Assembly (NCBI GenBank): GCA_963978095.1
Contig: CAXBQP010000001.1
Coordinates: forward strand, 89,095-153,094
Length of the DNA stretch: 64,000 bases
Source: an uncultured bacterium
Lineage (GTDB): Bacteria > Gemmatimonadota > Gemmatimonadetes > Gemmatimonadales > Gemmatimonadaceae
Direction of reading: 5' to 3'
Shown: one piece after another, positions 22,224 through 64,000 of the stretch
Layout: each line of letters begins with the position of its first letter
Position numbering within the stretch: position 1 is the stretch's first letter
Position numbers and translations under genes: made by a program
Notes under the pieces: model-generated
What the model was told of the DNA's origin: nothing
The model's database searches: none
The model's input: only the letters and a program-made list of their open reading frames with translations

Positions 22224-23051
22224 TCAGCGCCCCGCCCGCGCGGCCAGGAACGGATCCCAGAACCCGGGATCGATGCGCACCGACAGGATCGCCAGCTCCA
22301 ACACCGCGAGTGCACAGAGCACCGCGAGCATCGCCGCCTCCTGCCGCGCCGCCTCGGTCGCCGCGATGCGCGAGCGCCGCACCAGCATCGCGCTGCCGAC
22401 CGCGCAACCGGCCATGCCCACGAACACGAACGGCGCGTTGTGAGGCGGACCGAAGAACTGACGCAAATGCGCGAGATGCGGTGGCAGGAAGTTCCCCGCC
22501 GGATTCTCCACACCGAAGAAGACCGCCAACTTCGCGATTTGCTGCATTCCCCAGAACGTGAGCACGCCGTTCGCCCCGGCCTTGTTCGGGGCCCGAACCA
22601 CCACGAGGTAGGCCAGCGCGATGCACGCCAGCGCCGTCAGGTCGCTGAAGATCGTCGCGCGGACGGCGAGCAGGGCTGATGCCCACGAGGGGACGAGGAA
22701 CGGGGACACCGCATCCGCCGTCGGCGCGATGCCGATGATCCACCCGCCATAGAACGTCACCGACACCCACCCCCAGATGACCGCCCCGCCAAGAAAGCTG
22801 CGCCGCGCCGACAGCGCACGGGTGTCGTGCCGGCCGCTCCAGATTTCCCAATAGCCGGCACACATGAGCCACGTCGCGGTCATCAGCGCGAGAAACCGCG
22901 TCGGTGCGCTGCGCTGCATGGCGATGATCAGACCCGTCGCCAACCACCAGAACCCGACGACCGTCCCGATCGCCCGCACGAAGAGGCTGCGCCCACCGGC
23001 CGGTACGACGCCCGAAACCTCATGCGCCGCCCCACGCGCCTCCGTCGTCAC
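22224..23051 (-). CDS. puhE: Putative photosynthetic complex assembly protein PuhE (DUF3623-like polytopic membrane protein)
   Basis: 275-aa multi-TM protein. 'VGFWWLATGLII' resembles the PuhE N-terminal signature as I recall it. GTGA overlap with the bchD stop. The call rests on recollection and context. Confidence 0.55.
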   Translation of the reverse strand: MTTEARGAAHEVSGVVPAGGRSLFVRAIGTVVGFWWLATGLIIAMQRSAPTRFLALMTATWLMCAGYWEIWSGRHDTRALSARRSFLGGAVIWGWVSVTFYGGWIIGIAPTADAVSPFLVPSWASALLAVRATIFSDLTALACIALAYLVVVRAPNKAGANGVLTFWGMQQIAKLAVFFGVENPAGNFLPPHLAHLRQFFGPPHNAPFVFVGMAGCAVGSAMLVRRSRIAATEAARQEAAMLAVLCALAVLELAILSVRIDPGFWDPFLAARAGR

Positions 23052-24799
23052 GCCCCCGCCCCCCCGGGCAACACGCCGGACCCGCGCACCGCATGGCTGA
23101 TGGCCCGCGCGTCGCTATTCGGCAACGGCACATACCGCGCGCGCATCGCCTCAGCCAAGGTGGCCGCAAACGCCGAGGGACGGGGCGAGGTGTCCAGCAG
23201 GATCGCCGGTACGCTCATCGTCGTGAACGCGCGCGCCGACGCCAGCGCATCCTGCTCCGCCAACGGCCGCCCACCACTGCCATCGCGCGCGACATTGGCA
23301 CGCGCATCGGTCAGGAAGACGACCGCCGCCTCCTGACCCGAGCGCCGCGCGAGCAACGCCTGCTCCCGCGCGACATCGATCGCCGTCGCCAGCGGCGTAC
23401 CACCGCCACCCGGCAACGCGGCCAAGGCCCGCTTGGCCGCGGCGATCGCACGCGTCGGGGCGAGCAACACGTCTGCCGTCTTGCCGCGAAACGCGATCAA
23501 ACTCACCAAATCCCGGCGCGCATACGACTCGCCCAAGAGCAGTTCCACCGCCCCTTTCGCCTCGGCCAACCGGTTCAGCGCCGACGAACCCGACGCATCG
23601 ACGACGAATATCACCGTCGTGCCGTTGCGTTCGACATAGCGTCGCAGCCGAAAATCGTCGGGACGTATCTGCAAGCTCGTTCGTGACGCCGACGGCACCA
23701 ACCGCCGCCGGACCTCTTGCCAAGGCGCGGCAGCACGGACCGTCTCCAGTACGTCCAGACGTCCCCCGCTCCGCGGATCGCCGCGTCGGGTCCCCACGCG
23801 TCGGCCACGCTGCTGCGTCGCCCGCTCGGCGCCCGCCTTCCCCGAACTCGCCGCGGCCTGGCGATCCCGGCGGTCCTGCATCGCGAGCAAGGCCGCGGGC
23901 AGCACCGCTGCCATGACCTCCACGGTCAGGTCATCGAGCTCCCGGACGTCGTGGTCCCCCTCCGCCGGCTCCTCCGGTGGCGTGTCCGCATCGGGCGGCG
24001 GCGGGGGCTCTGAAGGAGGGGGCGGGGGCAACGGATCGTCCGCCGGGATCCGTGTCGCGCGTGGCCCGATCACCAGCGCGCAGGCGAGTTCGAGATCCTC
24101 CGGCGACACTCGCGTCCGACCGTCCAGGGCGGCCGCTGCGCGCGCGGCGCGCACGGCGAACACCATCGCCCGCATCGAATCCACCCCGTGCGCGAGTGCC
24201 ACCTGTACCACCGCCCCCGGCATCGCGGGGTCCATCGTGACCTGCTTCAGCGCCGCGCGTGCCGTCAGGACCTCGGCGCGCGTGAGCAGCGCGTCCGACG
24301 GTGTGTCGCCGACTATGTGATGAAACGCGAGACGGTCGGCCAGCGCTGCCAGCACGGGCTCGTCGGGCTCCCCTTCGTCGATCGCGATCAGGAGCAACTC
24401 CGCGGGCGCCCCGGTGCCGAACGATCGCGGCGTCATCACGCGTCCCGAGTCGAGCACCGCCGACAGCCGCGACACGAGCCCTGACGATGCCCGCTCCGCC
24501 ATCGGCAGCACCACCACGCCCCCATGCGCCGATGCGAGCACCCCCCGCTCCTCGACCGGCCGCGATGCCGCAAGCGTTGCCGCCAGATCGAGACCGCCGA
24601 GCAAGCGATCATCGCCGATGGTCACGGGCAGCCGTCGCACGGGGGCGCCCTCCGGCAACAACGCGGCCAACAGCGACACCCACCGACGCGCATGGTCCGG
24701 GGACGGCGCCCGCACCAGGGCACCGCCCAGCCCGACGGGGTCCACCGCCAACAGCGCCGCGACCGTCACGCCGCGCGTGTCCACATCGTCGCCGCGCAC
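23048..24799 (-). CDS. bchD: Magnesium chelatase subunit D
   Basis: N-terminal degenerate AAA module, Pro/acidic linker 'PPPPPSEPPPPPDADTPPEEPAEGD' and a C-terminal VWA with 'VIFVVDASGS'. GTG start 3 nt after the bchI stop. Confidence 0.9.
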   Translation of the reverse strand: MRGDDVDTRGVTVAALLAVDPVGLGGALVRAPSPDHARRWVSLLAALLPEGAPVRRLPVTIGDDRLLGGLDLAATLAASRPVEERGVLASAHGGVVVLPMAERASSGLVSRLSAVLDSGRVMTPRSFGTGAPAELLLIAIDEGEPDEPVLAALADRLAFHHIVGDTPSDALLTRAEVLTARAALKQVTMDPAMPGAVVQVALAHGVDSMRAMVFAVRAARAAAALDGRTRVSPEDLELACALVIGPRATRIPADDPLPPPPPSEPPPPPDADTPPEEPAEGDHDVRELDDLTVEVMAAVLPAALLAMQDRRDRQAAASSGKAGAERATQQRGRRVGTRRGDPRSGGRLDVLETVRAAAPWQEVRRRLVPSASRTSLQIRPDDFRLRRYVERNGTTVIFVVDASGSSALNRLAEAKGAVELLLGESYARRDLVSLIAFRGKTADVLLAPTRAIAAAKRALAALPGGGGTPLATAIDVAREQALLARRSGQEAAVVFLTDARANVARDGSGGRPLAEQDALASARAFTTMSVPAILLDTSPRPSAFAATLAEAMRARYVPLPNSDARAISHAVRGSGVLPGGAGA

Positions 24800-24802
24800 G
24801 CG

Positions 24803-25831
24803 CTAGGCGCCGTAGCAGTCCGCGATCGCCCGCAGCACGCGAGCCGTCGAGCCGACATCGTCCAAAGGGTTCCGCCGCAACCGATGCCGCAGCGCTTCCG
24901 GCGCGATCGCGCGCAGATGCTCCAAGGTCACCTCTTTCTTTCCCTCCAGCGCGGCCCATGCCCGCGACGCCCGGAGCAGGGAGAGCTCGCCTCGCAGCCC
25001 GTCGGTGCCCAGTCGCGTGCACAACTCCGCCGCCCGCGCGAGCACCGCATCGGGCACCGCGACGTCGTGCACGCGCTTCCGCGCCCGCTCGAGGTGACGG
25101 CGGACCTTGCCATCCTCCTCCGCCCACTGCGCCACGAACCCCTCCGGGTCCCGGTCGAAGGCATCGCGACGACGCACCACCTCGATGCGCTGCGCGACCT
25201 CGTTGACCGTGCTCACCTCGCACGACAAGCCGAAGCGATCGAGCAACTGTGGACGCAGATCCCCCTCCTCGGGATTTCCGCTGCCCACGAGCACGAACCG
25301 CGCCGGATGCCGGATCGAGATCCCTTCCCGCTCCACGACGTTCTCCCCGGTCGCGGCCACGTCGAGCAGGAGGTCCACCAGGTGGTCCTCCAGCAGGTTG
25401 ATCTCATCCACGTACAGAAACCCGCGATGGGCGCGCGCCAGGAGGCCCGGCTCGAAGGCTTTTTCGCCCCGCGTCAGCGCGCGCTCCAAATCCAGTGCGC
25501 CCACCACCCGATCCTCCGTGGCTCCGAGGGGCAAGTCCACGACCGGCACCGGCACCTTCGACGCCCGGAGGCGCTCGCCGGCGGCGAGCTGGGCGCGGCA
25601 GTCGACGCACGCCGATCCTCCGGCATCCGGCGCACAGCCGTAGCGACACCCCTCGACCACCGCCATCGATGGGAGCAAGGCCGGCAGCGCGCGCACCACC
25701 GTCGACTTCGCCGTGCCACGGTGGCCGAGGATCAGGACGCCACCGATCGCGGGATCCACGGTCGCGAGCAGGATCGCCCGCTTCATCGCTTCCTGCCCTA
25801 CGATCGCCGAAAACGGAAAAACCGGTCGCAC
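24803..25831 (-). CDS. bchI: Magnesium chelatase ATPase subunit I
   Basis: '[15 protein letters not shown]', Walker A 'GHRGTAKST', 'LYVDEINLL' and '[17 protein letters not shown]'. Start proposed at GTG 25831, preceded by GGAAGGGG. The in-frame ATGs at 25912 and 25957 would place coding sequence across the PpsR operators and both divergent promoters. The start is uncertain. Confidence 0.85.
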
Positions 25832-25880
25832 TGGCCCCTTCCGGTTGAAGTCGAAGTCACAGTCCGTGAGTTGGTGGGTT

Positions 25881-25967
25881 AGTCTATAGTTGAGGCGGCG
25901 GTGTCGCAACATCCTGACACTTTCTTTGTCCCTCTCTCTTGACACAACGCGCGCCATGCCCTAATCT
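25881..25967. promoter_or_regulatory. Back-to-back bchI / crtF promoters with a tandem PpsR/CrtJ-type operator pair
   Basis: Operators TGTCGCAACATCCTGACA (25902-25919) and TGTCCCTCTCTCTTGACA (25927-25944) are separated by 7 bp. The plus strand reads TTGACA(25939-44)-N17-TAATCT(25962-67). The minus strand reads TTGCGA (complement of 25904-09)-N17-TAGACT (complement of 25881-86). Confidence 0.65.
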
Positions 25968-26032: not shown

Positions 26033-27208
26033 ATGGGCGTCCGGGAGTCGATGCTTAATGGCGTAAGCGTCAGCATTCCAAGCGCTGACCTGCCACTGAC
26101 CTTGTCCGACCGCTGGCTGGCGTGGCGGGACCGGATTCAAGGCAGCGAGCGATTTCAGCGATGGGCCGCGTCGTTCCCCCTGACCCGCCCCATCGCGCTC
26201 GCCCGCTCGCGCGCCCTCTTCGATCTCACCGCTGGGTTCGTCTACACACAGACGCTCACCGCCTGCGTCCAGATCGGACTGTTCGAGTTCCTCGCGGAAA
26301 AGCCCCGGACCTTGGCCGAGGTGGCCAACCACGCCAGCCTCCCGCTTGAGGAGACGGGGCGTCTGCTGCGGGCCGCCATGGCCCTCAAGCTGGTCCAGGA
26401 GCGCTCGCATAAGCGATTCGGCAACGGCCCGCTGGGCGCGCCGATGATCGGGAACACGGCGCTCCACCGGATGATCGAACACAACGCGCTCCTCTACAAC
26501 GATCTGCGCAACCCGGTCGAGATGCTCCGGAGCGCCGGCCCGCGCAATCGGCTCGTGCTCGATGCCTTTCCCTACACGAGCGTTGCCAACCCCGAGACCT
26601 TCCAGCGCAGCGTCGTCGAAGAATACTCGCGGCTTATGGCCGACACCGTCGAGCCGATCGCGCGCGAACTCCTCGACACCTACCCGCTGGACGGGGTCAC
26701 CTCACTGCTCGACATCGGCGGAGGCGAAGGGTCCTTCTGCGCCGCGGTCGCCGCTCGGTACCTGGACATCAAACTCGGCCTCTTCGACCTCCCCGCCGTC
26801 ATCGAGGGGGCCCGGCCTCGACTCGAGAAGCTGGGCGTCGAAGGTCGGGTCACCTGCCATGGCGGGAACTTTCACGCCGATACGCTTCCGCAAGGGCACC
26901 AGATCATCACCCTGCTGCGCGTGCTGCTGGACCACGACGACACCGCGGTCCTCAAGCTCTTGCAGAAGGTGCGTGGCGCGGTCGCGCGTGGGGGGCGAGT
27001 CCTGATCGTCGAGCCGTTCGCCGGCGTCCCCGGCGCCGAAGTGGTGGGTGACGTCTATTTCGGCTTCTACCTGCGGGCCATGGGACGCGGGCGGGCGCGG
27101 ACCATCGACGAACTCCGCACCCTGCTGTCCGCGGCTGGCTTCTCGTCGGTCCGGGTGGTGAAAACACGCTATCCCGTCTACGCGGGCATGTTGGTGGCGG
27201 AGCCCTAG
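26033..27208 (+). CDS. crtF: Carotenoid O-methyltransferase CrtF (hydroxyneurosporene/demethylspheroidene type)
   Basis: 'FQRWAASFPLTRPIALARSRALFDLTAGFVY' is a CrtF-type N-terminus. SAM motif 'LLDIGGGEG'. It sits in the canonical position upstream of bchC. TTG 26024 is an alternative start. Confidence 0.8.
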   Translation: MGVRESMLNGVSVSIPSADLPLTLSDRWLAWRDRIQGSERFQRWAASFPLTRPIALARSRALFDLTAGFVYTQTLTACVQIGLFEFLAEKPRTLAEVANHASLPLEETGRLLRAAMALKLVQERSHKRFGNGPLGAPMIGNTALHRMIEHNALLYNDLRNPVEMLRSAGPRNRLVLDAFPYTSVANPETFQRSVVEEYSRLMADTVEPIARELLDTYPLDGVTSLLDIGGGEGSFCAAVAARYLDIKLGLFDLPAVIEGARPRLEKLGVEGRVTCHGGNFHADTLPQGHQIITLLRVLLDHDDTAVLKLLQKVRGAVARGGRVLIVEPFAGVPGAEVVGDVYFGFYLRAMGRGRARTIDELRTLLSAAGFSSVRVVKTRYPVYAGMLVAEP

Positions 27209-27279: not shown

Positions 27280-27323
27280 TGTCAGCTTTTTGAGACGATT
27301 TTTATTGTAAGCGTTTGTTTACA
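27280..27323. promoter_or_regulatory. Tandem PpsR/CrtJ-type operators in an AT-rich island upstream of bchC
   Basis: TGTCAGCTTTTTGAGACG (27280-97, imperfect) is followed after 8 bp by TGTAAGCGTTTGTTTACA (27306-23, a perfect TGT-N12-ACA with TGTAA/TTACA arms). -35-like TTGAAT and TTGAGA hexamers lie nearby. Confidence 0.65.
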
Positions 27324-27346: not shown

Positions 27347-28294
27347 TTGGAAGCTCTCGCCGTCGTTTTCGATCAACCCGAACACCTGTCACTGCGTCGA
27401 CTGCCCCTCACGGCAGCCGCGGAGACGGACGTGGTCGTGCAGGTCGATTACACGAGCATCAGCGCGGGCACGGAGCGCATGTTCTGGCGCGGGCGCATGC
27501 CCCCGTTCCCCGGCTTCGGGTACCCCCTCGTCCCAGGCTACGAGGCGGTCGGTCGCATCATCCAAGCGGGACCGCAGTCGGGACGCCACGAGGGCGAGTT
27601 GGTCTTCGTCCCGGGCTCCAGCGGCTTCGACGGGGTGCGCGGCCTCTTTGGCGCCGCCGCCTCGCGACTCGTCGTCCCGGGACGTCGCGTCATTGCGATC
27701 GAAGATTCGCTCGGGGAGCGCGCCGTTTTGCTCGCGCTCGCCGCGACCGCGTACCACGGCTTGGCGGGCCCTGCCGCCAAACGGCTTCCGGATCTCATCA
27801 TCGGCCACGGCACCTTCGGTCGCCTCGCCGCGCGATTGTGTCGTGCCCTCGATCCGTCCATCAATCCGGTGGTGTGGGAGCGTGATCCGCGTCGTGCCGC
27901 GGGCGCCGACGGCTATCGCGTCATCAGCGCCGAACAGGATGAGCGGCGTGACTACGCCTGCATCTTCGAGGCCAGCGGAGACGCCAGCCTCATGGAACCC
28001 ATGATCGGCCGCCTGCGCCGAAACGGGGAGATCGTCCTCGCCGGCTTCTACTGCGATCCGATCACGTTCGGATTCCTGTCGGCCTTTCACAAAGAGATCG
28101 AGATGCGGATCACGGCCGAGTGGGGAGCGAACGACCTGCAAGCGGTCACCCAACTCCTCAAGGACGGCCGCCTCTCCTTCGAAGGGCTCATCACCCATCA
28201 GCGTGATGCGCAACAGGCCACCGAAGCGTACGGGATGGCCTTTGACGATCCGAACTGCATCAAGATGATCCTCGACTGGAGGCAGTCCGCGTGA
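27347..28294 (+). CDS. bchC: Bacteriochlorophyllide a dehydrogenase BchC
   Basis: TTG start behind AGGAG gives 'MEALAVVFDQPEHLSLRRL', as in BchC homologues. 'GYPLVPGYEAVGRI' MDR fold. Confidence 0.9.
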   Translation: MEALAVVFDQPEHLSLRRLPLTAAAETDVVVQVDYTSISAGTERMFWRGRMPPFPGFGYPLVPGYEAVGRIIQAGPQSGRHEGELVFVPGSSGFDGVRGLFGAAASRLVVPGRRVIAIEDSLGERAVLLALAATAYHGLAGPAAKRLPDLIIGHGTFGRLAARLCRALDPSINPVVWERDPRRAAGADGYRVISAEQDERRDYACIFEASGDASLMEPMIGRLRRNGEIVLAGFYCDPITFGFLSAFHKEIEMRITAEWGANDLQAVTQLLKDGRLSFEGLITHQRDAQQATEAYGMAFDDPNCIKMILDWRQSA

Positions 28295-29307
28295 GCCAGA
28301 AGAACCCCGCTGGACCGGAAGCGCTGGTGCAGCTCCACCGGAACATGCGCGCCGAAGCGGCGAGCGAGCCGCGGGCGGTCCACACCTCGCCGGCAACGAA
28401 AGAAACACAGATCATCGCCATCTACGGAAAAGGCGGGATCGGCAAGAGCTTCACGCTCGCCAATCTCTCGTACATGATGGCGCAGCAGGGGAAGAAGGTC
28501 CTCCTCATCGGCTGCGATCCCAAGAGCGACACGACCTCGTTGCTCTTCGGCGGACGCGCCTGCCCCACGATCATCGAGACCTCGAGCAAGAAGAAACTCG
28601 CGGGTGAAGAAGTCTCGATCGGTGATGTCTGCTTCAAGCGCGACGGCGTGTTCGCCATGGAGCTCGGCGGCCCGGAAGTCGGACGCGGGTGTGGCGGACG
28701 CGGCATCATCCACGGCTTCGAACTGCTCGAGAAGCTGGGCTTCCACGAGTGGGGCTTCGACTACGTACTCCTCGACTTCCTGGGCGACGTCGTCTGCGGC
28801 GGATTCGGCTTGCCGATCGCGCGCGACATGTGCCAGAAGGTCATCGTCGTCGGATCCAACGACCTGCAGTCGCTGTACGTCGCGAACAACGTGTGCTCTG
28901 CGGTCGAATATTTCCGCAAGCTCGGTGGCAACGTCGGCGTGGCCGGCATGGTCATCAACAAGGACGACGGCACCGGCGAGGCGGCCGCCTTCGCCGAGAG
29001 GGTGGGCATCCCGGTGCTCAGCGCGATCCCGGCGCACGAGGACATCCGTCGCAAGAGCGCGAACTACGAGATCATCGGCAAGCCCGGAACGATGTGGGCG
29101 CCGGTGTTCGAGACGTTGGCGCGCAACGTCGCCGACGCCCCTCCGGTGCGCCCCAGACCGCTCGCCCAGGACGATCTGCTCGGACTCTTCGCCGGCGACG
29201 TCGTCGGGCGCCATGTCATTTTGACGCCGGCCACGACCTTCGACATGGTCGGGCGCAATGATGTCGCGAAGCCCACGCTCGAAGTCGTCTACGACGCGGC
29301 GGTCTGA
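28291..29307 (+). CDS. bchX: Chlorophyllide a reductase iron protein subunit X
   Basis: '[40 protein letters not shown]' NifH-like P-loop and Fe-S Cys ligands. GTGA overlap with the bchC stop. Confidence 0.95.
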   Translation: MSQKNPAGPEALVQLHRNMRAEAASEPRAVHTSPATKETQIIAIYGKGGIGKSFTLANLSYMMAQQGKKVLLIGCDPKSDTTSLLFGGRACPTIIETSSKKKLAGEEVSIGDVCFKRDGVFAMELGGPEVGRGCGGRGIIHGFELLEKLGFHEWGFDYVLLDFLGDVVCGGFGLPIARDMCQKVIVVGSNDLQSLYVANNVCSAVEYFRKLGGNVGVAGMVINKDDGTGEAAAFAERVGIPVLSAIPAHEDIRRKSANYEIIGKPGTMWAPVFETLARNVADAPPVRPRPLAQDDLLGLFAGDVVGRHVILTPATTFDMVGRNDVAKPTLEVVYDAAV

Positions 29308-49185: not shown

Positions 49186-49187
49186 CG

Positions 49188-51148
<1,961 letters not shown>

Positions 51149-51255
51149 GCCTCCGCAACTTCCGGATACCTTGCGCGTACGGGATTCGTGACACACCGTG
51201 TCAGGACTCCCGTACGCTTGCAAGCACATTCATCAGGGACTGAGCATCGGCCGTC

Positions 51256-53628: not shown

Positions 53629-54519
53629 ATGTCTTCTCTTGCGCGGACGACCCCCGAGCCGTCGGCGCTCCTCGAGTTACTGAAGCCAGTCACGTGGTTC
53701 CCGCCGATTTGGGCCTTCACCTGCGGCGTGATCTCCACCGGGATTCCCGTCGGGAACCACTGGCGCGCAGTGATCACGGGAGCGTTGGTCGCGGGCCCGC
53801 TGGTTTGCGGCGCAAGTCAAGCCGTCAATGACTGGTATGACCGTCACGTTGATGCCATCAATGAACCGAAGCGGCCGATCCCCTCGGGTCGAGTCCCGGG
53901 TCGCTGGGGCTTCTACGTCGCCATCGGCTGGAGCCTGCTCTCCGCCGCCGTCGCATCCACGCTCGGTGGACGCGCGCTCTTGGCCACGCTGCTCGGCCTC
54001 GCGATGGCGTGGATGTACAGCATGCCGCCCTTCCGACTGAAGGAAAACGGGTGGTGGGGAAATCTCGCCGTCGGCCTCTCGTACGAAGGGCTCGCGTGGA
54101 TCACCGGCACCGCCGTCATGCTGGACTCCCTGGCCCCTGCCCCACCAACGATTTGGATGGCGGTGCTCTACAGTCTCGCGGCGCACGGCATCATGACGCT
54201 CAACGACTTCAAAGCCATCGGCGGCGACATCCAGTGTGGGGTTCGGTCGCTCCCGGTGCAACTCGGCGTCACACGTGCAGCATGGGTGTCGAGCGGCGTG
54301 ATGCTGGCCCCCCAGTTCGTGGTGGCCGGTCTGCTGGGGATGTGGGGAAAGCCCGCGGCTGCGCTCGGTATCGTGGGTCTCATCGCGGCCCAGATGATCA
54401 TGATGCGCTGGTTCATCGCCAAGCCGGTCGAACGGGCGCTGTACATGAGCGCCTTCGGCGTCCCCATTGAAGTGGCCGGCATGGTGCTGTCGGCGTTTGC
54501 CATCCGGGGGGTCGCATGA
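53629..54519 (+). CDS. bchG: Bacteriochlorophyll synthase (UbiA prenyltransferase family)
   Basis: ATG 53629. 'NDWYDRHVDAINEPKRPIPSGR' and polytopic TM segments. Confidence 0.9.
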   Translation: MSSLARTTPEPSALLELLKPVTWFPPIWAFTCGVISTGIPVGNHWRAVITGALVAGPLVCGASQAVNDWYDRHVDAINEPKRPIPSGRVPGRWGFYVAIGWSLLSAAVASTLGGRALLATLLGLAMAWMYSMPPFRLKENGWWGNLAVGLSYEGLAWITGTAVMLDSLAPAPPTIWMAVLYSLAAHGIMTLNDFKAIGGDIQCGVRSLPVQLGVTRAAWVSSGVMLAPQFVVAGLLGMWGKPAAALGIVGLIAAQMIMMRWFIAKPVERALYMSAFGVPIEVAGMVLSAFAIRGVA

Positions 54520-55847: not shown

Positions 55848-57106
55848 TGGCGTCAACCGCGTTGCCCATCCTTGCCGTCTCCCCGGATCTCTCGGGTGCT
55901 GCCCCACACCGCGACCTGTGCACCGATTGCGGCGTCTCGCGCATGTCGGCGCCACACCGTTGCGGGCAGGTGTGCCAGTTCATCAATCCCCAGCACACGC
56001 GCCTCGAACGGCAGGTGCACGGTCGTGCGCGGGACGCGCAGCGTGGGGACGAGCTGTACTTCGGGCCGTACATCGCGATGCATCGGGCCCGGCTCATCCG
56101 CCCGCTCGAGGGCGCGCAGTGGTCCGGCATCACGACGCGGATCAGCGAGCGGCTGCTGGAGACGGGGGCGGTGGACGCGGTGATCGCCACGGCGGCCGAC
56201 CCGCACGACAAATGGACACCACGGCCGGCGCTGATCACGCGTGCCGAGGAGATGCAGCAGGCCCGCGGCATGAAGATGGGGTACTCCCCCGTGCTGGCAT
56301 TGCTCGAGGAGGCCAAGGCGATGGGGTACCGACGCGTGGCCTTGCACGGAGTGGCATGTCAGGTGCATGCGCTTCGGGCGCTCGAACAGGAACTTGGCTT
56401 CGACGCGCTCTACGTGATCGGCACGCCGTGCAGCGACAACACGACGACCGAGAAATTCCACGACTTCCTCGCGTTGCTCGCCGACCGCCCCCAGGACGTG
56501 ACCTATCTGGAGTTCATGCCGGATTATCACGTGGAGTTGCGCTTCGTGGACGGGGCCGTCACGCGTATTCCCTTCATTCAGCTCCCGATCGCGCAGCTGC
56601 CCAAGGACTTCATTCCGCTGACCTGTCGTTCGTGCTTCGACTACACGAATGCCCTGTCCGACATCACCGTGGGCTACATGGGCGGCGACGGGGAGCAGTG
56701 GTTGCTGGTGCGCAACGCACGCGGTGCGGCGATGCTCGATCTGTTGCGTGGCGAAGTCGAGCTCTCGGAGCCCGGATCACGGGGCAACCGTGAGAAGCCG
56801 CTGCGGACGTTCGTGTCGGTGCTCTCCAAGCAGGCGGGGGGGATGCCGGTGCGTCGCCCGCCGCGGTGGATCAAGCCGGTGATCGGATGGGCGCAGGCGA
56901 CCTTCGGCCCGAAGGGATTGGAGTTCGCCCGCACACGCGTCGAGATGAAAGCCGCGGAGGGGATCATCAACCTTCGGGCGGAGCGTCCGCGGAGGGTACG
57001 TCGGTTGGTCCCGGATTTCGCGTGGGCGGTGGTCGCGCGATACGGGTTGGTGCGCCGTGCCGCTGAAGAGCCGTTCTTGGCTCCTACACCCGGGAGGAAC
57101 GGATGA
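55847..57106 (+). CDS. FrhB-like Fe-S flavoprotein; candidate BciB-type 8-vinyl reductase
   Basis: Cys clusters 'CTDCG..CGQVC', 'GTPCSDN' and 'CRSCFDY', with FrhB-like 'VALHGVACQVHALR'. It sits between the pucC-like gene and bchP with overlapping junctions. The functional assignment is inference. Confidence 0.55.
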   Translation: MASTALPILAVSPDLSGAAPHRDLCTDCGVSRMSAPHRCGQVCQFINPQHTRLERQVHGRARDAQRGDELYFGPYIAMHRARLIRPLEGAQWSGITTRISERLLETGAVDAVIATAADPHDKWTPRPALITRAEEMQQARGMKMGYSPVLALLEEAKAMGYRRVALHGVACQVHALRALEQELGFDALYVIGTPCSDNTTTEKFHDFLALLADRPQDVTYLEFMPDYHVELRFVDGAVTRIPFIQLPIAQLPKDFIPLTCRSCFDYTNALSDITVGYMGGDGEQWLLVRNARGAAMLDLLRGEVELSEPGSRGNREKPLRTFVSVLSKQAGGMPVRRPPRWIKPVIGWAQATFGPKGLEFARTRVEMKAAEGIINLRAERPRRVRRLVPDFAWAVVARYGLVRRAAEEPFLAPTPGRNG

Positions 57107-58296
57107 CCTCGCACATCTATGACGTGGTGGTCGTCGGGGGTGGGCCCGCGGGGGCGACGGCCGCGCACGAACTCGCGCAGCGCGGACGCTCGGTGCTGTT
57201 GCTGGACCGCGCGTGGCGCACCAAGCCGTGCGGCGGTGCGGTGCCACCGCAGCTCCTGGAAGATTTCCAGGTACCTCAGTCGTTGTTGGTCGCACGCATC
57301 GCGTCGGCGCGCATGATCGCGCCGAGTGATCGCTCGGTGGATATCCCCGTGGGGGACGGCTTCGTCGGGATGGTGGACCGCGACGTCTTTGATGAATGGC
57401 TCCGGGCACGGGCGGCGGTGGCAGGCGCTGTTCGCGTGACGGGTGCGTTCACGGCGCTCGACCGTGACGCGGACGGCACGGTGACGGTTCGCTATACCGC
57501 GGGGCGGTCACGACAGGGTGGCGCGCGGAGCGTGCGCGCCCGTTACGTCGTCGGTGCCGACGGGGCACTCTCGCCCGTCGCGCGGGCGTGCATCCCCGCA
57601 TCCAAGGATGCCCGGTTCGTGTTCGCGTATCACGAGATCGTGAAATCACCCGCACAGGATACGTCGGCGTTCGCGGCGACGCGGTGCGACGTGTACTACC
57701 AGGACCGGGTCTCTCCGGATTTCTACGCGTGGGTCTTCCCGCACGGCACGACGACGAGCATCGGGACCGGGTCGTTGCAGCAAGGGTACGGGCTGAAGCA
57801 GTCGGTCGCGGCGTTGCGGGCACGCACCGGGCTGGATCAGGTCGAGACGATCCGTCGTGAAGGGGCTCCGATTCCGCTCGAGCCGCTCAAGCGCTGGGAT
57901 GACGGCCGGAATGTCGTGCTCGCAGGCGACGCCGCAGGCGTGGTGGCGCCCTCGTCGGGGGAAGGCATTTTCTACGCCATGACCGGCGGACGGCTCGCGG
58001 CGGCCGCCGTCGAGTTGGCGATCGCGACCGGCGATGCGCGCGCCCTGGCGACGGCGCGCCGCCGCTTCATGCGCGTGCATGGACACACCTTCTGGATCCT
58101 CGGCGTGATGCAGCGCTATTGGTACTCGAGCGATGTGCGTCGCGAACGATTCGTCACGATCTGCCGGGACCGCGATGTCCAGCGTCTCACCTTCGAAGCC
58201 TACATGCGGAAGCGTTTGGTCGTCGCGAAGCCGTTGTCGCACCTGAAAATCTTCGTGAAGAATCTCGCGCATCTCACGGGGCTGGTGCCCGCGTGA
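57103..58296 (+). CDS. bchP: Geranylgeranyl (bacterio)chlorophyll reductase
   Basis: 'YDVVVVGGGPAGATAAHELA' and 'GDAAGVVAPSSGEGIFYAM'. Confidence 0.9.
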   Translation: MTSHIYDVVVVGGGPAGATAAHELAQRGRSVLLLDRAWRTKPCGGAVPPQLLEDFQVPQSLLVARIASARMIAPSDRSVDIPVGDGFVGMVDRDVFDEWLRARAAVAGAVRVTGAFTALDRDADGTVTVRYTAGRSRQGGARSVRARYVVGADGALSPVARACIPASKDARFVFAYHEIVKSPAQDTSAFAATRCDVYYQDRVSPDFYAWVFPHGTTTSIGTGSLQQGYGLKQSVAALRARTGLDQVETIRREGAPIPLEPLKRWDDGRNVVLAGDAAGVVAPSSGEGIFYAMTGGRLAAAAVELAIATGDARALATARRRFMRVHGHTFWILGVMQRYWYSSDVRRERFVTICRDRDVQRLTFEAYMRKRLVVAKPLSHLKIFVKNLAHLTGLVPA

Positions 58297-58778
58297 TGCT
58301 TTCCCGGGCGCCGATGGCCATCAGCATCGCCAGCTACGTGTCGCTCGCGTTGGCCGGGGCATGGCTCACGGAGATCGGCCCGTGGTATCGGACATTGCGC
58401 AAGCCGTCCTGGCAGCCGCCTGACCTGGCGTTCGGACCGGTGTGGAGCAGCATCTTCGCCTTGGCCGGCTGGGCAGCCGTGCGCGGCTGGAACGCACCCG
58501 GGAGCACGGGACAACGCCTGATGCTGGTCGCGGCATTCGTCACGAACGGCGCAGGCAACATGCTCTGGAGTTATCTGTTCTTCCGCCGTCGGCGCCCGGA
58601 CTGGGCGCTGATCGAAGTCGTTCCGTTCTGGGGAACGATCGTGTGGATGATCGTGGCAGTGCGGCCCCTCGATCCTTCGGCCGTGTGGATGCTGGTTCCA
58701 TATCTGTGTTGGGTCACGTTCGCCTCGGTGTTGAATACGGCGATCGTGCGTCTCAACCGGCCATTCGGGGGACAATGA
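58296..58778 (+). CDS. tspO: Tryptophan-rich sensory protein TspO
   Basis: 'WYRTLRKPSWQPPDLAFGPVWSSIF' and 'PYLCWVTFASVLN'. The ATG overlaps the bchP stop (TGATG). Confidence 0.9.
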   Translation: MLSRAPMAISIASYVSLALAGAWLTEIGPWYRTLRKPSWQPPDLAFGPVWSSIFALAGWAAVRGWNAPGSTGQRLMLVAAFVTNGAGNMLWSYLFFRRRRPDWALIEVVPFWGTIVWMIVAVRPLDPSAVWMLVPYLCWVTFASVLNTAIVRLNRPFGGQ

Positions 58779-58782
58779 TCCT

Positions 58783-60225
58783 ATGCTGATCTCGATTGCC
58801 GTTGATTTCCGTCACGCGAACGTCGCCACACGCGAGCGTTTCCACCTCACGCCGGAGCGGATTGCCCGCATGTACGAGTGCGACGGGGATCTGGTCCGCG
58901 AGCTGGTCTGCGTGGCGACGTGCAACCGTTCCGAGGTGTATGCGTGGACGGGGTCCTCAGACCCCTCATCCCCGGTGACCTTCGATCACACCGTGACGGC
59001 GCTGGCGCGGCGGTGGATGCCGGGGCGCAACGATGCCAAGACCCTGCTCTCGGTGGCACGCCGTCAGTCGGGTCTCGATGTCGCGCGCCGGTTGATGCGG
59101 ATCGCCGCCGGACTGGAGTCGCAAGTCGTGGGCGACGGCCAAATCCTGGGACAGTTGAAGGACTCCTACCGGTCAGCTGCGGATGCGGGGGCCGCCGGCT
59201 CCGTCCTGCATCGGCTGTTCGAAACGTCGCTGCGTACCGGCAAGCGGGTCCAGACGGAGACCAGTTTGACGGCGGGGCGCCGTTCGATCGGCGCCGAGGC
59301 CGCGGCCGTCGCGCATCGCCGATTCGGGAACCTCGAGCATGCGCGCGTCGTCATCATCGGCTGCGGCAAGACGGGACTCAACGTGGCGCGACAGGTGACC
59401 AAGCTCGGCGCGCGCGATGTCGTGATGGTCAACCGCACGATCGACCGCGCGCAGCAGGTGGCCGAGGAGGTTGGCGGGCGGTGGGCCGCGTGGGAAGCAC
59501 TGCACGTCGAGGTGGCGATGGCCGACATCGCGATTGTCGCCACGGCGGCACTGGAACCGATTGTCCGGTACCAGGACTTGCAGCAGGCCCGGGAGAACTG
59601 CGGGACGAGCACGTATCCGCTCATGCTGGTGGATCTCGCGATGCCGCGCAACATCGACCCCGCGCTCACCGGAGCTCCCGGGGTGACCCTCGTGGATCTC
59701 GACGCGCTGCACATTCCCGTGTTGGCCGCCGAGGAATCCCGGCGGTCGGCGGCGCCCGCCGCCGATGCGATCGTGGAGGCGGAACTGCAGAGTTTCGTGG
59801 AATGGGTGGCGGCCGCCGCGGCCCGCGATGCGATCCGCCCGCTGCGCGAGGCCCTGGAGGAGATCTGCCGTCGCGAGTTGACGTACGCGGCGGGCGAGGA
59901 GCTCGCCGGCCGGACGACGGAGCGCATCGTGGCCAAGATCCTCGCGCGACCGATGGTCAAACTGCGCACGGCGCTCGCCCATGGCGAGGCGCTGCATGCG
60001 TTCAGCTCCACGCTGGACTCGCTCTTCACGGGCCCGGTGACGGACCGCGAAGCGCGCGAAGAGGTACGTCCCGCCCCCCGCAAGCGGAAGGCCGGTCGTG
60101 CCGGAGCGCTCGCCGCGCCGAACGTATCCCACGCGTCGGAGACGACCGGCGTTGGCACCCCGTTGCATGCGCCGCCGCAACGTCCGATGGTCCACCCTGA
60201 TCCCGGAATGCTCCGCACCGTATGA
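58783..60225 (+). CDS. hemA: Glutamyl-tRNA reductase
   Basis: 'ATCNRSEVY' active-site Cys and 'VVIIGCGKTG' NADPH fold. C-terminal Arg/Ala-rich extension. Confidence 0.9.
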   Translation: MLISIAVDFRHANVATRERFHLTPERIARMYECDGDLVRELVCVATCNRSEVYAWTGSSDPSSPVTFDHTVTALARRWMPGRNDAKTLLSVARRQSGLDVARRLMRIAAGLESQVVGDGQILGQLKDSYRSAADAGAAGSVLHRLFETSLRTGKRVQTETSLTAGRRSIGAEAAAVAHRRFGNLEHARVVIIGCGKTGLNVARQVTKLGARDVVMVNRTIDRAQQVAEEVGGRWAAWEALHVEVAMADIAIVATAALEPIVRYQDLQQARENCGTSTYPLMLVDLAMPRNIDPALTGAPGVTLVDLDALHIPVLAAEESRRSAAPAADAIVEAELQSFVEWVAAAAARDAIRPLREALEEICRRELTYAAGEELAGRTTERIVAKILARPMVKLRTALAHGEALHAFSSTLDSLFTGPVTDREAREEVRPAPRKRKAGRAGALAAPNVSHASETTGVGTPLHAPPQRPMVHPDPGMLRTV

Positions 60226-61286
60226 GTGATCTGTTCCTCCGCGCCTGTCGGCGCGAACCCGTCGAACGGCCCCCCGTCTGGATGATGCGCCAGGCGGGGC
60301 GGTATCTGCCGGAGTATCGCGCCGTGCGTGCGAAGTCCGACTTCTTGTCGATGTGCCGGACACCGGAACTCGCGGTGGAGGTGACGTTGCAACCCGTGGA
60401 CATCCTGTCCGTGGATGCAGCGATCATTTTCAGCGACATCCTCGTGATTCCCGAGGCGATGGGCATGCACCTGATCATGGACGAGGGCAAGGGACCACAG
60501 TTCCCGTCCCCGCTCCGGAGCGCGGCCGATGTCCGGGGGCTGCACGACGTGGATCCGAACACCGATCTGCGCTATGTGATGGATGCGTTGACCCTCGCGC
60601 GGCGTGAGCTCAACGGTCGCGTGCCGCTGATCGGGTTCGCCGGCGCGCCGTGGACGCTCGCCTCCTACATGGTGGAAGGCAAAGGGACCAAGCAGTTTGC
60701 GGTCGCGAAGAAGCTCCTGTACGAAGATCCGGCGACGGCGCACCTGTTGCTCGGACGGATCGCCGTGGCCGTGGGGCACTACATGAAGGCGCAGATTGCG
60801 GCCGGGGCGCAGGCACTGCAACTGTTCGACTCGTGGGCCGGCGCGTTGGGCCCTGAGCTGTTCCGCGAGTTCGGGCTGCGGTACTTGGCGCAAGTCGCGG
60901 ACATCGCGCGGACGCCCGGGGTGCCGTTCATCGTCTTCGCTCCGGGCGCGGGGTGGGCCTTCGAGGAGATCGCGCGCGCGACCAATGCCGATGTCGTGGG
61001 CGTGGACTGGCACATGGACGCGACCGCTGCCCGTACGGCCGCGGATCGGTGCGGAGTGGCCGTGCAGGGCAATCTGGATCCGTGCGCCCTCTACGGCTCT
61101 CCGGCGTCGATCCGTGCGCGGACCCAGGCGATGCTCCGCGCGTTCGGCGGACGAGGGCATATCGCGAATCTCGGGCATGGGATTCTCCCCGACGTTCCGG
61201 TCGAACATGCACGCACCTTCGTGGATACCGTGCGCGAGTGGTCCAACGTGCCGGCCGTTCCGCCCGTCGGAGCCGCGGCGCGATGA
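60222..61286 (+). CDS. hemE: Uroporphyrinogen decarboxylase
   Basis: 'PPVWMMRQAGRYLPEYR' signature. ATGA overlap with hemA. Confidence 0.95.
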   Translation: MSDLFLRACRREPVERPPVWMMRQAGRYLPEYRAVRAKSDFLSMCRTPELAVEVTLQPVDILSVDAAIIFSDILVIPEAMGMHLIMDEGKGPQFPSPLRSAADVRGLHDVDPNTDLRYVMDALTLARRELNGRVPLIGFAGAPWTLASYMVEGKGTKQFAVAKKLLYEDPATAHLLLGRIAVAVGHYMKAQIAAGAQALQLFDSWAGALGPELFREFGLRYLAQVADIARTPGVPFIVFAPGAGWAFEEIARATNADVVGVDWHMDATAARTAADRCGVAVQGNLDPCALYGSPASIRARTQAMLRAFGGRGHIANLGHGILPDVPVEHARTFVDTVREWSNVPAVPPVGAAAR

Positions 61287-62245
61287 CCGTCCCCGCGTCG
61301 GGCGCCCCCATGCGCGAGCGTGCGGGGCCGTGGATCGCGTCGATCCATGATGATCTGACCGCGCTCTTCGAACGCCTCGATGCGGGGACGCGCTTCACCG
61401 AGGACCGGTGGGACCGTGCGGGAGGGGGCGGCGGCGTCACGCGCGTGATGGTCGACGGCGCCACATTCGAGAAAGCCGGGATCAATCGTTCCGAAGTCTT
61501 CGGCGTGCTGGCTCCGGCCGCAGCCGCTCGACTTGGCGGGATCGGCGTGTCACAGGGCGAGACGCATTTCTACGCCACCGGCGTGAGCCTGGTGATTCAT
61601 CCGCGCAGTCCGATGATTCCCACCGTGCACTTGAACGTGCGCTACTTCGAGCTGAGCGACGCGCACGGCCATGTCACCGATGCCTGGTTCGGCGGTGGAA
61701 CCGACCTGACGCCGATGTACCCGCATCCGGAGGATCCCGCGCATTTCCATCGGGCCCTCAAGACGATCTGTGACGCGCATCATCCGACCTTCCACCCACG
61801 TTTCAAGGCGTGGTGTGACGAATACTTCACGAACAAGCACCGCGAGGGCGAGGCGCGCGGGTGCGGCGGGATATTCTTCGATCACATGCGCGCCGACACC
61901 GATGCGAGCGGCCTCGCGCTCGCGCCGCTGCAGGCCTTCGTGGATGCGGTGGGACGCTCGCTGCACACGGCGTACGCGCCGATCGTCGAGCAGCGCCGCG
62001 GCGAGCCGTGGGGAGACGCCGAACGCCAGTACCAACTGCTCCGTCGCGGCCGGTATGTGGAGTTCAATCTGCTGCACGACCGCGGTACGATTTTCGGCCT
62101 GCAGACCGACGCACGGGTGGAAAGCGTGCTGATGAGCCTCCCGCCGCTGGCGGCGTGGGAGTATGCGCCGCACTACGAGGAGGGCTCGTTCCAAGCGCGA
62201 CTCCTGACGATGCTCCGCCCGCGCGATTGGTGCGCGGGCGCGTAG
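61283..62245 (+). CDS. hemF: Oxygen-dependent coproporphyrinogen III oxidase
   Basis: 'FEKAGINRSEVFG', 'RRGRYVEFNLLHDRGTIFGL' and 'RGCGGIFFD'. The ATG overlaps the hemE stop (ATGA). Confidence 0.9.
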   Translation: MTVPASGAPMRERAGPWIASIHDDLTALFERLDAGTRFTEDRWDRAGGGGGVTRVMVDGATFEKAGINRSEVFGVLAPAAAARLGGIGVSQGETHFYATGVSLVIHPRSPMIPTVHLNVRYFELSDAHGHVTDAWFGGGTDLTPMYPHPEDPAHFHRALKTICDAHHPTFHPRFKAWCDEYFTNKHREGEARGCGGIFFDHMRADTDASGLALAPLQAFVDAVGRSLHTAYAPIVEQRRGEPWGDAERQYQLLRRGRYVEFNLLHDRGTIFGLQTDARVESVLMSLPPLAAWEYAPHYEEGSFQARLLTMLRPRDWCAGA

Positions 62246-62246: not shown

Positions 62247-62909
62247 GTGGATCGGGTGCGGCCATTCGAGGGTGCCTCCGACACGCTGTCGGCACAGCTG
62301 CGCGACCGCACCAAGGACGCGCATCACGCCGCCGAACGCAGCGGCGTGATGGCGGCGTTGTTGCGCGGCCAGATGACGCGCAGCACCTACGCCCTGTTGC
62401 TGCGCAGCCTGCATCCGATCTATGACGCGCTCGAGCGGGGCCTGGCGAGCGCGGCGCACGATCCGTGGATCGCTCCGATCCACGCCCCGCGGGTCTGGCG
62501 CACGGCCGCCCTCGAGCGGGATCTGGTGTATTTCGCCGGCCCCGCGTGGGCTGCGTTGCCGATCGCGCCGGCGGCCATGGGTTACGCACAGCGGCTGGAC
62601 GCGCTCCGGCGCGAGCACCCGGGGCAGCTCGTCGCCCACGCCTATGTCCGGTATCTCGGTGACCTCAATGGCGGACAGATCCTCGCCCGGGTGGTGCGAA
62701 AGGCGCTCGGGTTGACTGACGCGGCCGGGACGGCGTTCTACGAGTTCGCGGAGATCGACGACCTGCGCGCGGAGTCCGGCCGGTGGCGGGCCGCGCTGGA
62801 CGCGGTGCCGGCCGACCTGGAAGGCCGCGCGCGCCTCGCCGACGAGGCACTCGTCGGGTTCGACTTGCACATCCGGATGTTCGCCGAGATCGCGGCGCTG
62901 GCAGCGTAG
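62247..62909 (+). CDS. Biliverdin-producing heme oxygenase (BphO/HmuO type)
   Basis: 'LRDRTKDAHHAAE' carries the proximal His, and 'YVRYLGDLNGGQ' is the distal helix. GTG start 1 nt after the hemF stop. Confidence 0.8.
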   Translation: MDRVRPFEGASDTLSAQLRDRTKDAHHAAERSGVMAALLRGQMTRSTYALLLRSLHPIYDALERGLASAAHDPWIAPIHAPRVWRTAALERDLVYFAGPAWAALPIAPAAMGYAQRLDALRREHPGQLVAHAYVRYLGDLNGGQILARVVRKALGLTDAAGTAFYEFAEIDDLRAESGRWRAALDAVPADLEGRARLADEALVGFDLHIRMFAEIAALAA

Positions 62910-62920
62910 GGCCGTCGGCG

Positions 62921-64000
62921 CTACGGCGCGCCGTCGGGACCGATGTAGCTCGACAGGATACTGGTCAGATGCGCGGCGTGCCGGGTGGAATCCTCCACTT
63001 CCCGCAGCAGCGGTGCGACGGAGGCCACCGTGACGGCGTCGGCGATCTCGCTCACGGCGACGCCCGCGTTGGCCCAGATGGCGGCCATGAGTCCCTGCAG
63101 GTCCGGGGGGAGATCGCGGGCGCCAGGGAGGGCCGGTTGCTGCGCGCGCAGAATTGCATGTTGGAGTCGCAGGCGCGCGGCCTCGGTCGCCTTCCGTGCG
63201 GTGAGGTCCGTCAGCATCACGATGAATCCGAGCGCCGTGCCGTGCGGGCCCGGGACTTGGTCGGCGCGCACGGCGACCGGCACCGACACGCCGTCGCCAG
63301 CCACGAGCGCGAGTTCGCCGCGCCACGGCCGTCGTTCGTTGCGGACGCCGTGCACCATCTGCAGGAACCGCTGGGGCTCCGTGAAATGCGGCGCGAGATC
63401 GACCAGCGATTCCCAGGCACGGTGCGGACGCCGGATCATGCCGCCGAGCGCATCGTTCGCGATCAGGATGCGACCGTTGGCGTCGGCGATGATGACCGGC
63501 TCGGTGGAGCGTTCGACCGCCGTACGCACGCGTTGGAGCTGGTTTTCGGCGATCAGGACGCGCACTGCGCGGATTTGCAGGATCAGATCCGTCAGTGAGG
63601 CTCCGACGGCGCGCGCCAGCGCGAGCTCCCTCGGCTCCCAGGGCGACGCCGTGTCGCGCACGATCTGGTGCCACTCGGCGAACGAGCGGCGGGGTGACAG
63701 CTCCCGGGGATCGTTCCCCATGACCACCTTGTGGGGATCACCGCCCCAGACGACGTCGTGCAGCTGCTCCTTGCGGAACCACGCGAAATATTCGCCAGTG
63801 CCCGGCGCCAATTCGATGGCCAGCACGCCGCTCGCCAGCGGCGAGAGCGACGCCAGTCCGGGATTCAGCCGCGAGATGGCGTTGCTCTGAAAGAGCGAGC
63901 CATCGTTGCGTCCCTGCAGCCAGGCAAAGAGCGCGCGCAGTTCGACCGTGGAGGGGACATCGCCGGCCGTCATGAGTTCGCCCTCATACATGAGCGCGGC
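62921..64000 (-). CDS. Bacteriophytochrome, C-terminal part only (PHY tongue + PAS + helical output; no kinase domain); 5' end outside the window
   Basis: PHY-tongue motifs 'WGGDP' and 'PRRSFAEW' are followed by the PAS segment 'EPVIIADANGRILIANDA..' and a ~95-aa helical C-terminus. No H-box or HATPase motifs are present. The frame is open to the window edge. Confidence 0.75.
   Translation of the reverse strand, partial: AALMYEGELMTAGDVPSTVELRALFAWLQGRNDGSLFQSNAISRLNPGLASLSPLASGVLAIELAPGTGEYFAWFRKEQLHDVVWGGDPHKVVMGNDPRELSPRRSFAEWHQIVRDTASPWEPRELALARAVGASLTDLILQIRAVRVLIAENQLQRVRTAVERSTEPVIIADANGRILIANDALGGMIRRPHRAWESLVDLAPHFTEPQRFLQMVHGVRNERRPWRGELALVAGDGVSVPVAVRADQVPGPHGTALGFIVMLTDLTARKATEAARLRLQHAILRAQQPALPGARDLPPDLQGLMAAIWANAGVAVSEIADAVTVASVAPLLREVEDSTRHAAHLTSILSSYIGPDGAP

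Follow-up and report, generated by a model that had tools for sequence, protein, structure and literature searches.

A photosynthesis gene cluster, very probably of the 'phototrophic group 1' type, joined to the chromosome of an uncultured Gemmatimonadota bacterium

The stretch of contig CAXBQP010000001.1 considered here, 64,000 nt long and called the window below, contains an intact type-2 photosynthesis gene cluster (PGC) at positions 22224-64000, preceded by the ordinary metabolic genes of its host. On the strength of its gene content, gene order and lineage hallmarks, we hold it to be very probably the complete chromosomal PGC of an uncultured freshwater member of the Gemmatimonadota (order Gemmatimonadales), of the type described as 'phototrophic group 1' (PG1). 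The window has a GC content of 64-70% (about 66%), and unfiltered lists of its open reading frames (ORFs) are crowded with antisense shadows; genes were called by their codon-position GC pattern and their starts then adjusted to the gene calls recorded on near-identical metagenomic contigs. Identities were assigned by NCBIfam and Pfam profile searches, and structural matches were sought among PDB sequences. Shadow ORFs such as 24524-25882 (plus strand), 49263-50597 (plus strand) and 51091-51651 (minus strand) were dropped for their codon-position GC pattern and lack of any family match. The genes from the left end of the cluster onward are as follows:

22224-23051, minus strand: puhE (NCBIfam 107.2 bits, below cut-off; Pfam DUF3623)
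23048-24799, minus strand: bchD (NCBIfam 636.3 bits)
24803-25786, minus strand: bchI (NCBIfam 507.7 bits)
26033-27208, plus strand: crtF-like O-methyltransferase (Pfam Methyltransf_2 and Dimerisation)
27347-28294, plus strand: bchC (NCBIfam equivalog above cut-off)
28291-29307, plus strand: bchX (NCBIfam equivalog above cut-off)
29310-30842, plus strand: bchY (NCBIfam equivalog above cut-off)
30895-32349, plus strand: bchZ (NCBIfam equivalog above cut-off)
32317-33222, minus strand: bchO, an alpha/beta hydrolase (TIGR03056, 202 bits; cut-off 172.55)
33373-33507, plus strand: pufB, 44 aa
33547-33711, plus strand: 54-aa alpha of the LHh outer-ring type (pufA2 in the literature)
33813-34028, plus strand: 71-aa alpha of the LH1 inner-ring type (pufA1 in the literature)
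34155-34979, plus strand: pufL (NCBIfam 427.9 bits, above cut-off)
34992-36233, plus strand: pufM, 413 aa (NCBIfam 502.1 bits, above cut-off)
36233-37354, plus strand: pufC, tetrahaem cytochrome (NCBIfam)
37484-37966, minus strand: puhC (TIGR03054)
37963-38616, minus strand: puhB (bPH_2 domain)
38616-39161, minus strand: puhA2 (Hc), 181 aa (recorded gene calls; PDB 7O0U)
39158-39364, minus strand: puhA1 (Ht), 68 aa (recorded gene calls; PDB 7O0U)
39395-40846, minus strand: lhaA (PUCC domain, E 1.4e-127)
40848-41912, minus strand: acsF (NCBIfam 464 bits)
41915-42244, minus strand: orf109, BciE-like (homologous to an ORF that separates puhC from acsF in alphaproteobacterial PGCs)
42255-43046, minus strand: bchM (NCBIfam equivalog)
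43049-43942, minus strand: bchL (NCBIfam equivalog)
43986-47603, minus strand: bchH (NCBIfam equivalog)
47593-49185, minus strand: bchB (NCBIfam equivalog)
49188-50468, minus strand: bchN (NCBIfam equivalog)
50465-51076, minus strand: bchF (NCBIfam equivalog)
51256-52074, plus strand: ppaA/aerR-like B12-binding protein (Pfam B12-binding)
52101-53537, plus strand: ppsR (TIGR02040 PpsR-CrtJ, 466 bits)
53629-54519, plus strand: bchG, likely start ATG 53629 (NCBIfam)
54516-55847, plus strand: PucC-like MFS protein, 'bch2' (PUCC E 1.3e-84)
55847-57106, plus strand: FrhB_FdhB_N + C protein, BciB-like (Pfam)
57103-58296, plus strand: bchP (NCBIfam/Pfam)
58296-58778, plus strand: tspO (NCBIfam/Pfam)
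58783-60225, plus strand: hemA, glutamyl-tRNA reductase (NCBIfam)
60222-61286, plus strand: hemE (NCBIfam/Pfam)
61283-62245, plus strand: hemF (NCBIfam/Pfam)
62247-62909, plus strand: heme oxygenase (NCBIfam/Pfam)
62921 to beyond 64000, minus strand: bacteriophytochrome (Pfam PHY, PAS)

The complete gene set for bacteriochlorophyll (BChl) a, i.e. bchHDI, bchM, acsF, bchLNB, bchF, bchXYZ, bchC, bchG and bchP, lies within 22224-58296 together with the reaction-centre (RC) genes, the bchI-bchD-puhE operon forming the left end of the PGC; apart from crtF, the cluster contains no carotenoid genes. Every PGC, hem, tspO and phytochrome gene named in the original prediction was recovered in its place by the NCBIfam and Pfam searches, though its list lacked the crtF-like methyltransferase, the second PucC-like gene and the FrhB/BciB-like gene. 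It had puhA and hemA as genes but missed that the former is split into two ORFs (68 and 181 aa) and that the latter encodes glutamyl-tRNA reductase and not 5-aminolevulinate (ALA) synthase, and its bchIDO block does not exist as such, bchO sitting apart from bchI and bchD. The three placements to which it had drawn attention, namely acsF with a small ORF between bchM and lhaA, puhE after bchD, and bchO inverted between bchZ and pufB, all agree with the coordinates. The same holds for the tightly joined minus-strand run of 13 ORFs from bchF to puhC (37484-51076): its successive junctions measure -4, 2, -11, 43, 2, 10, 2, 1, 30, -4, -1 and -4 nt, with an overlap or a gap of at most 2 nt at nine of the twelve.

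The state of these genes bears on whether the cluster could be a silent or decaying relic in a non-phototrophic organism, as might be imagined from the restriction of its carotenoid genes to crtF and from phototrophy being predicted here from genes. Such a relic is very unlikely: each listed PGC ORF with both ends inside the window is intact and has a coding-type GC content at third codon positions (GC3), the translational coupling of the 13-ORF run is preserved, putative operators of the PpsR type are retained, and the population recurs at at least 99% identity in several metagenomes. Active pufM expression by limnic Gemmatimonadota is, moreover, mentioned in PMC8547001.

The arrangement of the cluster is that of the published PGCs of phototrophic Gemmatimonadota. 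From bchP to puhE, the PG1 metagenome-assembled genome (MAG) RH-9nov16-179 has an order identical, gene for gene, to that of the window in the direction 58296 to 22224 (PMC8547001, Table S4), a comparison by published gene order and not by sequence that says nothing on whether the two belong to the same species or genus. The window shows both traits of PG1: a gene with the FrhB_FdhB_N and C domains in the bchP-bchG operon, and a puhC-pufC gap of 129 nt free of any insert. PG1 as published has the order P-FrhB-hp-G (hp, hypothetical protein), and the window likewise has the frhB-like gene, which is treated as a marker of the group and said to replace bch2 (PMC8547001); in the window, however, the counterpart of the published hp beside frhB is a clear PucC-family protein (E 1.3e-84), and frhB and bch2 are both present. 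Members of PG1 share ~72% (pufM) and ~71% (acsF) nucleotide identity with Gemmatimonas phototrophica and cluster in phylogenomics (Mujakić 2021, PMC8547001). The convergent superoperon arrangement kept in all phototrophic Gemmatimonadota (PMC8547001) is found here as the bchFNBHLM-initiated and the crtF-bchCXYZ-puf superoperons, along with the bchID-puhE operon and the hp-acsF pair between bchM and lhaA.

Direct comparison with other genomes extends this picture. In two Gemmatimonas MAGs (L002 and L003), order and relative orientation are the same as in the window from bchO through bchZYXC and crtF to bchI-bchD-puhE, while identity to their proteins falls from 84-86% (BchX) and 82-83% (BchZ) through 69-71% (BchI) to ~50% (BchC), 46-48% (BchD) and ~40% (PuhE). 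A 3.5-Mb contig with an AcsF 70% identical to that of the window (L019) follows the same order from the B12-binding protein to bchZ: one strand encodes the B12 protein, bchFNBHLM, a 108-aa ORF, acsF, lhaA, a two-piece puhA (67 + 180 aa), puhB and puhC, and the converging strand pufC, pufM, pufL, a 71-aa alpha, a 53-aa alpha and a 43-aa beta, followed by bchO and bchZ. The position and orientation of bchO are thus the same in the Gemmatimonas MAGs, in L019 and in the published MAGs. G. phototrophica AP64 and G. groenlandica share with the window the bchID-puhE operon, the convergent superoperons, the split puhA1/puhA2, a pufB with two alphas, an extended PufM and an adjoining hem operon; in G. 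phototrophica both the bchID-puhE operon and the position of the hem operon next to the PGC are on record (PMC11406998). Unlike the window, G. phototrophica has its PGC split by an insert of hypothetical genes and a bchP-bchG operon without the frhB-like gene (PMC8547001). On a separate Gemmatimonadales MAG contig (L004, 1-8270), the order is puhE, crtF, bchCXYZ, pufB and an alpha gene, with bchI and bchD not between puhE and crtF and bchO not before pufB; therefore, exceptions to the 'conserved' Gemmatimonadota order exist.

Alphaproteobacterial PGCs (Roseobacter litoralis plasmid pRLO149_94 and a Novosphingobium capsulatum plasmid) share with the window the gene families, a small ORF directly upstream of acsF and the blocks bchM-lhaA-puhABC and pufBALMC. 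However, they run bchM-lhaA-puhA-puhB-puhC-ORF-acsF-puhE-hemA, with puhA as a single gene and hemA encoding ALA synthase, whereas the window has the ORF-acsF pair between bchM and lhaA, puhE after bchD, a split puhA, a second alpha gene and a hemA for glutamyl-tRNA reductase. The original prediction had called the order non-canonical and proposed a synteny comparison: relative to Proteobacteria the term is apt, but the order is the published canonical one for phototrophic Gemmatimonadota, and the comparison sets the window apart from the alphaproteobacterial PGCs and beside those of the Gemmatimonadota.

The RC and antenna genes carry the hallmarks of the lineage. PuhA scores 252.9 bits, above the NCBIfam cut-off; its two ORFs overlap by 4 bp, match chains H1 (E 1.5e-28) and H2 (E 6.4e-77) of PDB 7O0U, and measure 207 + 546 bp as against 204 + 546 bp in G. 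phototrophica. In that species, according to PMC8849296, the H subunit comes from two ORFs upstream of lhaA, and one pufB with two alphas serves the inner LH1 and outer LHh rings. Both the division of puhA and the presence of a second alpha gene are regarded as Gemmatimonadota-specific and are interpreted in a 2025 paper as post-transfer innovations that predate the divergence of the genera. The antenna ORFs of the window carry LHC domains: the 54-aa alpha matches LHh-alpha of 7O0U (E 8.8e-15), giving a gap-free alignment with its counterparts from G. phototrophica and G. groenlandica in which Ser15 and His29 are kept, and the 71-aa alpha matches chain aa of 7O0U (E 6e-29), a chain of 71 aa being found in both 7O0U and 9H19. 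PufM has its best PDB match in RC-M of G. phototrophica (7O0U, E 3e-186); its PDB list is headed by the two long RC-M chains of the Gemmatimonas double-ring photosystems, 367 aa in 7O0U and 392 aa in 9H19, above all other RC-M chains, with 512 bits to the best non-Gemmatimonas chain. Its C-terminus is a 103-aa Ala/Pro-rich tail without a recognised domain. The PufM of L019 (15689-17110, minus strand) is a different case: it is 473 aa long and finishes with a complete OmpA domain (Pfam E 5e-22), which suggests that the M subunit of that RC may be tethered to peptidoglycan on the periplasmic side.

From this gene content, the type-2 RC is predicted to consist of L, M, the tetrahaem C subunit and an H subunit split into Ht and Hc, with LhaA, PuhB, PuhC and PuhE as probable assembly factors. 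The single beta and the two alphas would build an inner LH1 and an outer LHh ring as in Gemmatimonas, and the product would be a double-ring RC-dLH photosystem for aerobic photoheterotrophy.

To the left of the PGC lies a segment of the host chromosome with the following content:

1-22198: host flank of ordinary metabolic genes (Pfam and recorded gene calls on near-identical contigs)
First part of the flank, in sequence: CutC fragment, alpha/beta hydrolase, DsbA-FAD protein, aminotransferase, proline dehydrogenase, GFO/IDH/MocA protein, beta-lactamase-fold protein, gluconate-2-dehydrogenase subunit 3, GMC oxidoreductase
Next part, in sequence: TIM barrel, M20 peptidase, Zn-ADH, MsrA, MsrB, PALP enzyme, CarboxypepD_reg protein, SDR, cupin, RhlE helicase
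~20865-21578: histidine kinase, near the end of the flank
21575-22198: LuxR-type response regulator, at the end of the flank

The GMC oxidoreductase, gluconate-2-dehydrogenase subunit 3, TIM-barrel and CarboxypepD_reg proteins from which a Gemmatimonadota- or Acidobacteria-like flank had been surmised are confirmed by Pfam, the Tat-signal match on the TIM barrel being weak and below threshold. The taxon-named matches of the RhlE helicase are mostly MAGs of Gemmatimonadaceae, Gemmatimonadales or Gemmatimonadota, at 75-82% identity, and point to a Gemmatimonadota host, as judged from this one flank protein and not from a marker-gene phylogeny. On the side of the PGC, all taxon-named AcsF matches belong to Gemmatimonadales or Gemmatirosa (71-77% identity), one match labelled just '[bacterium]' aside, and those of orf109 to Pseudogemmatithrix spongiicola and to MAGs of Gemmatimonadales or Gemmatimonadota. 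A scan of GTDB species genomes with PuhE, which required exact 8-residue words and may have let nearer relatives escape, gave four loci at 39-40% identity, three of them labelled Gemmatimonas or Gemmatimonadales and the fourth simply 'bacterium'. The surmise of a purple-bacterial-type PGC in a genome of this kind is thus upheld by the helicase matches and by the order and hallmarks of the cluster alike. A proteobacterium with a rearranged PGC would account for the purple-bacterial kind of gene set and operon blocks, and for a few helicase matches labelled Proteobacteria. It is nevertheless extremely improbable as the source of the window: most named flank matches and all taxon-named AcsF and orf109 matches are from Gemmatimonadota, the split puhA and second alpha gene are reported from that phylum only, the gene order is identical to that of published Gemmatimonadota MAGs, and AcsF is just 50-56% identical to the copies found in alphaproteobacterial plasmid PGCs.

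The junction of flank and cluster is real. Identical copies of its proteins occur on an NCBI contig of 169,075 bp and on many metagenomic contigs. Metagenomic contigs of several samples are 99.2-99.8% identical to the window, and six independent assemblies (L013-L018) cross 22.2 kb, all with the response regulator next to puhE; because these six contigs come from several samples, the junction is not an assembly artefact. A chimera of assembly or binning might have been suspected in a sequence of metagenomic origin, the more so as one 53.9-kb contig starts near the junction, but with the six crossing contigs, which also follow more than one assembler-style naming scheme, its probability is close to nil. 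The PGC ends with puhE in the Gemmatimonas MAGs L002 and L003 too, but the neighbours of puhE there are MCP and MacB/FtsX ABC-transporter genes, as against the two-component system that adjoins it here. Thus, puhE is a conserved end of the cluster, whereas the chromosomal neighbourhood varies between genera.

In composition, flank and PGC are the same, as emerged from the GC3 and tetranucleotide comparison that the original prediction had proposed: GC3 is 0.823 both in 21 flank genes and in 40 genes of the PGC region (Mann-Whitney p = 0.81), tetranucleotide profiles correlate at 0.94 inside the flank, at 0.93 inside the PGC and at 0.94 from one to the other, and synonymous codon usage correlates between the two at r = 0.99. 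The window is free of tRNA genes, and neither the scanned flank proteins nor the Pfam hits on record for flank genes show an integrase or transposase domain, in accordance with the earlier description of a left edge without tRNA, integrase or insertion sequence (IS). At this boundary, the one that lies in the window, neither such elements nor the deviating composition by which mobile islands are recognised was found. A PGC recently acquired by this lineage as a genomic island is accordingly a reading of very low probability: it could draw on the left neighbours, a two-component system instead of the MCP and MacB/FtsX ABC genes of Gemmatimonas, but rearrangement after an old acquisition explains these equally well, and genera with PGC proteins 15-60% apart have the same internal order.

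Composition and the absence of signs of mobility fit an old, fully ameliorated acquisition. An ancient transfer of the PGC to Gemmatimonadota, followed by inheritance in the phylum, has been proposed (PMC8849296, PMC11406998, PMC12817894, PMC11194577). A transfer from a purple proteobacterium into the ancestor of phototrophic Gemmatimonadota, with the cluster inherited within the phylum from then on, would explain why its composition is host-like and why it bears no mobile-element scars.

Several points weigh against this interpretation, or narrow it. The proteobacterial origin rests on published phylogenies, the one line of direct support in our data being the strong similarity of AcsF and PufM to proteobacterial proteins; that the cluster is expressed, that its photosystem has a double ring and that the transfer took place is inferred. 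A few taxon-named RhlE matches are labelled as MAGs of Proteobacteria, Nitrospiria and Dormibacteraeota, which could reflect mis-binned MAGs or the conserved core of the helicase. As the GTDB species representatives gave PuhE relatives at 39-40% only, the placement of the organism would stay above genus level. The outer-ring alpha differs from both solved Gemmatimonas complexes in having Phe31 for Trp31, a residue discussed for spectral tuning and linked to the difference between 816 and 860 nm; the outer-ring absorption of the present organism may differ on that account. Finally, RC-S and RC-U, extra subunits of the Gemmatimonas complex, were not among the PDB matches listed for the concatenated small ORFs, no search having been made elsewhere.

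The genes allow a route from protoporphyrin IX to BChl a to be proposed, which would proceed through BchHDI, BchM, AcsF with a BciE-like partner, BchLNB, a BciB-like 8-vinyl reductase, BchF, BchXYZ, BchC, BchG and BchP. The candidate partner of AcsF is orf109, for which there is no Pfam or NCBIfam match. Among the 120 relatives listed (of 235 matches in all), the more distant ones are 57-76% identical, four near-identical matches at 88-99% having been excluded, and an orf109-like ORF of 105-110 aa directly upstream of acsF is tightly conserved in phototrophic Gemmatimonadota. Searches with tblastn found matches just upstream of acsF in nine PGC-bearing alphaproteobacterial plasmids; in the two inspected, the match is an unnamed ORF between puhC and acsF. 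Between orf109 and the Novosphingobium copy, identity is 41% (pairwise E 2e-21), with invariant P-C, H-A-H and G-D-x-V-x-V-H motifs. A paper on Myxococcota gives the operon puhA-puhBC-bciE-acsF-puhE, with bciE in that puhC-acsF position. Reviews place BciE in Alphaproteobacteria, and in the literature we found no direct statement on BciB or BciE in Gemmatimonadota. We tentatively suggest, at slightly less than even odds, that orf109 is a true orthologue of BciE and that phototrophic Gemmatimonadota use a BciE-dependent form of the O2-dependent Mg-protoporphyrin monomethyl ester cyclase. If so, this class of cyclase would extend beyond Alphaproteobacteria, the sole group to which reviews assign it, and orf109 would be relevant to the question of the PGC donor, for which the usual comparison is with Rubrivivax, a betaproteobacterium with an AcsF that acts on its own.

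The candidate 8-vinyl reductase is the FrhB-like protein. The literature names its gene frhB, for an F420 hydrogenase (PMC8547001). Because the gene lies in the bchG-bchP operon, however, a BciB-type 8-vinyl reductase appears the more natural reading than a subunit of an F420 hydrogenase. The combination of FrhB_FdhB_N and C domains also agrees with the domain architecture of BciB.

Control of the cluster may be exerted by the PpsR/PpaA pair, acting as putative repressors through operator-like palindromes of the form TGT-N12-ACA in three promoters:

25902-25944, divergent bchI/crtF intergenic region: two palindromes, 7 nt apart, putative PpsR operator
27306-27323, upstream of bchC: one palindrome
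53581-53624, between ppsR and the likely bchG start: two palindromes, 8 nt apart, putative PpsR operator

Window-wide, the nine sites observed do not exceed chance (6.0 ± 2.6 expected); five of them fall in these three PGC promoter regions, which total ~475 bp, and only this concentration carries meaning. For G. phototrophica, one single PpsR site is on record, at the start of its bchID-puhE operon (PMC11406998), in agreement with the position of the bchI/crtF pair, and the present lineage may keep more PpsR control than that species. The hemA beside the PGC serves the C5 pathway, in contrast to the ALA synthase gene of the two alphaproteobacterial PGCs inspected. The bacteriophytochrome at the right end is convergent to the heme oxygenase; its visible C-terminal 356 aa comprise a PHY followed by a PAS domain, and Pfam detects no histidine-kinase domain in this part of a gene that runs out of the window. 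It presumably resembles those phytochromes of Rhodopseudomonas that are not kinases and act on PpsR.

Down to its gene order, this PGC is of an already described kind and not a new system; with it, the ancient acquisition of photosynthesis from purple bacteria, already known, has been correctly found again. Reportedly described in 2014 by Zeng et al., the passage of an entire PGC from one phylum to another ranks among the landmarks of horizontal gene transfer. A gene order of the window type was published in 2021 (PMC8547001), and solved structures for the encoded type of photosystem followed in 2022 and 2025. The window is thus of confirmatory value: a single unbroken 64-kb stretch joins a complete PG1-type PGC to 22 kb of host chromosome, from which the cluster is compositionally indistinguishable. 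For specialists in BChl biosynthesis and photosystems, the BciE-like ORF, the BciB-like gene annotated as an F420 hydrogenase subunit and the PufM-OmpA fusion of a relative may offer leads.

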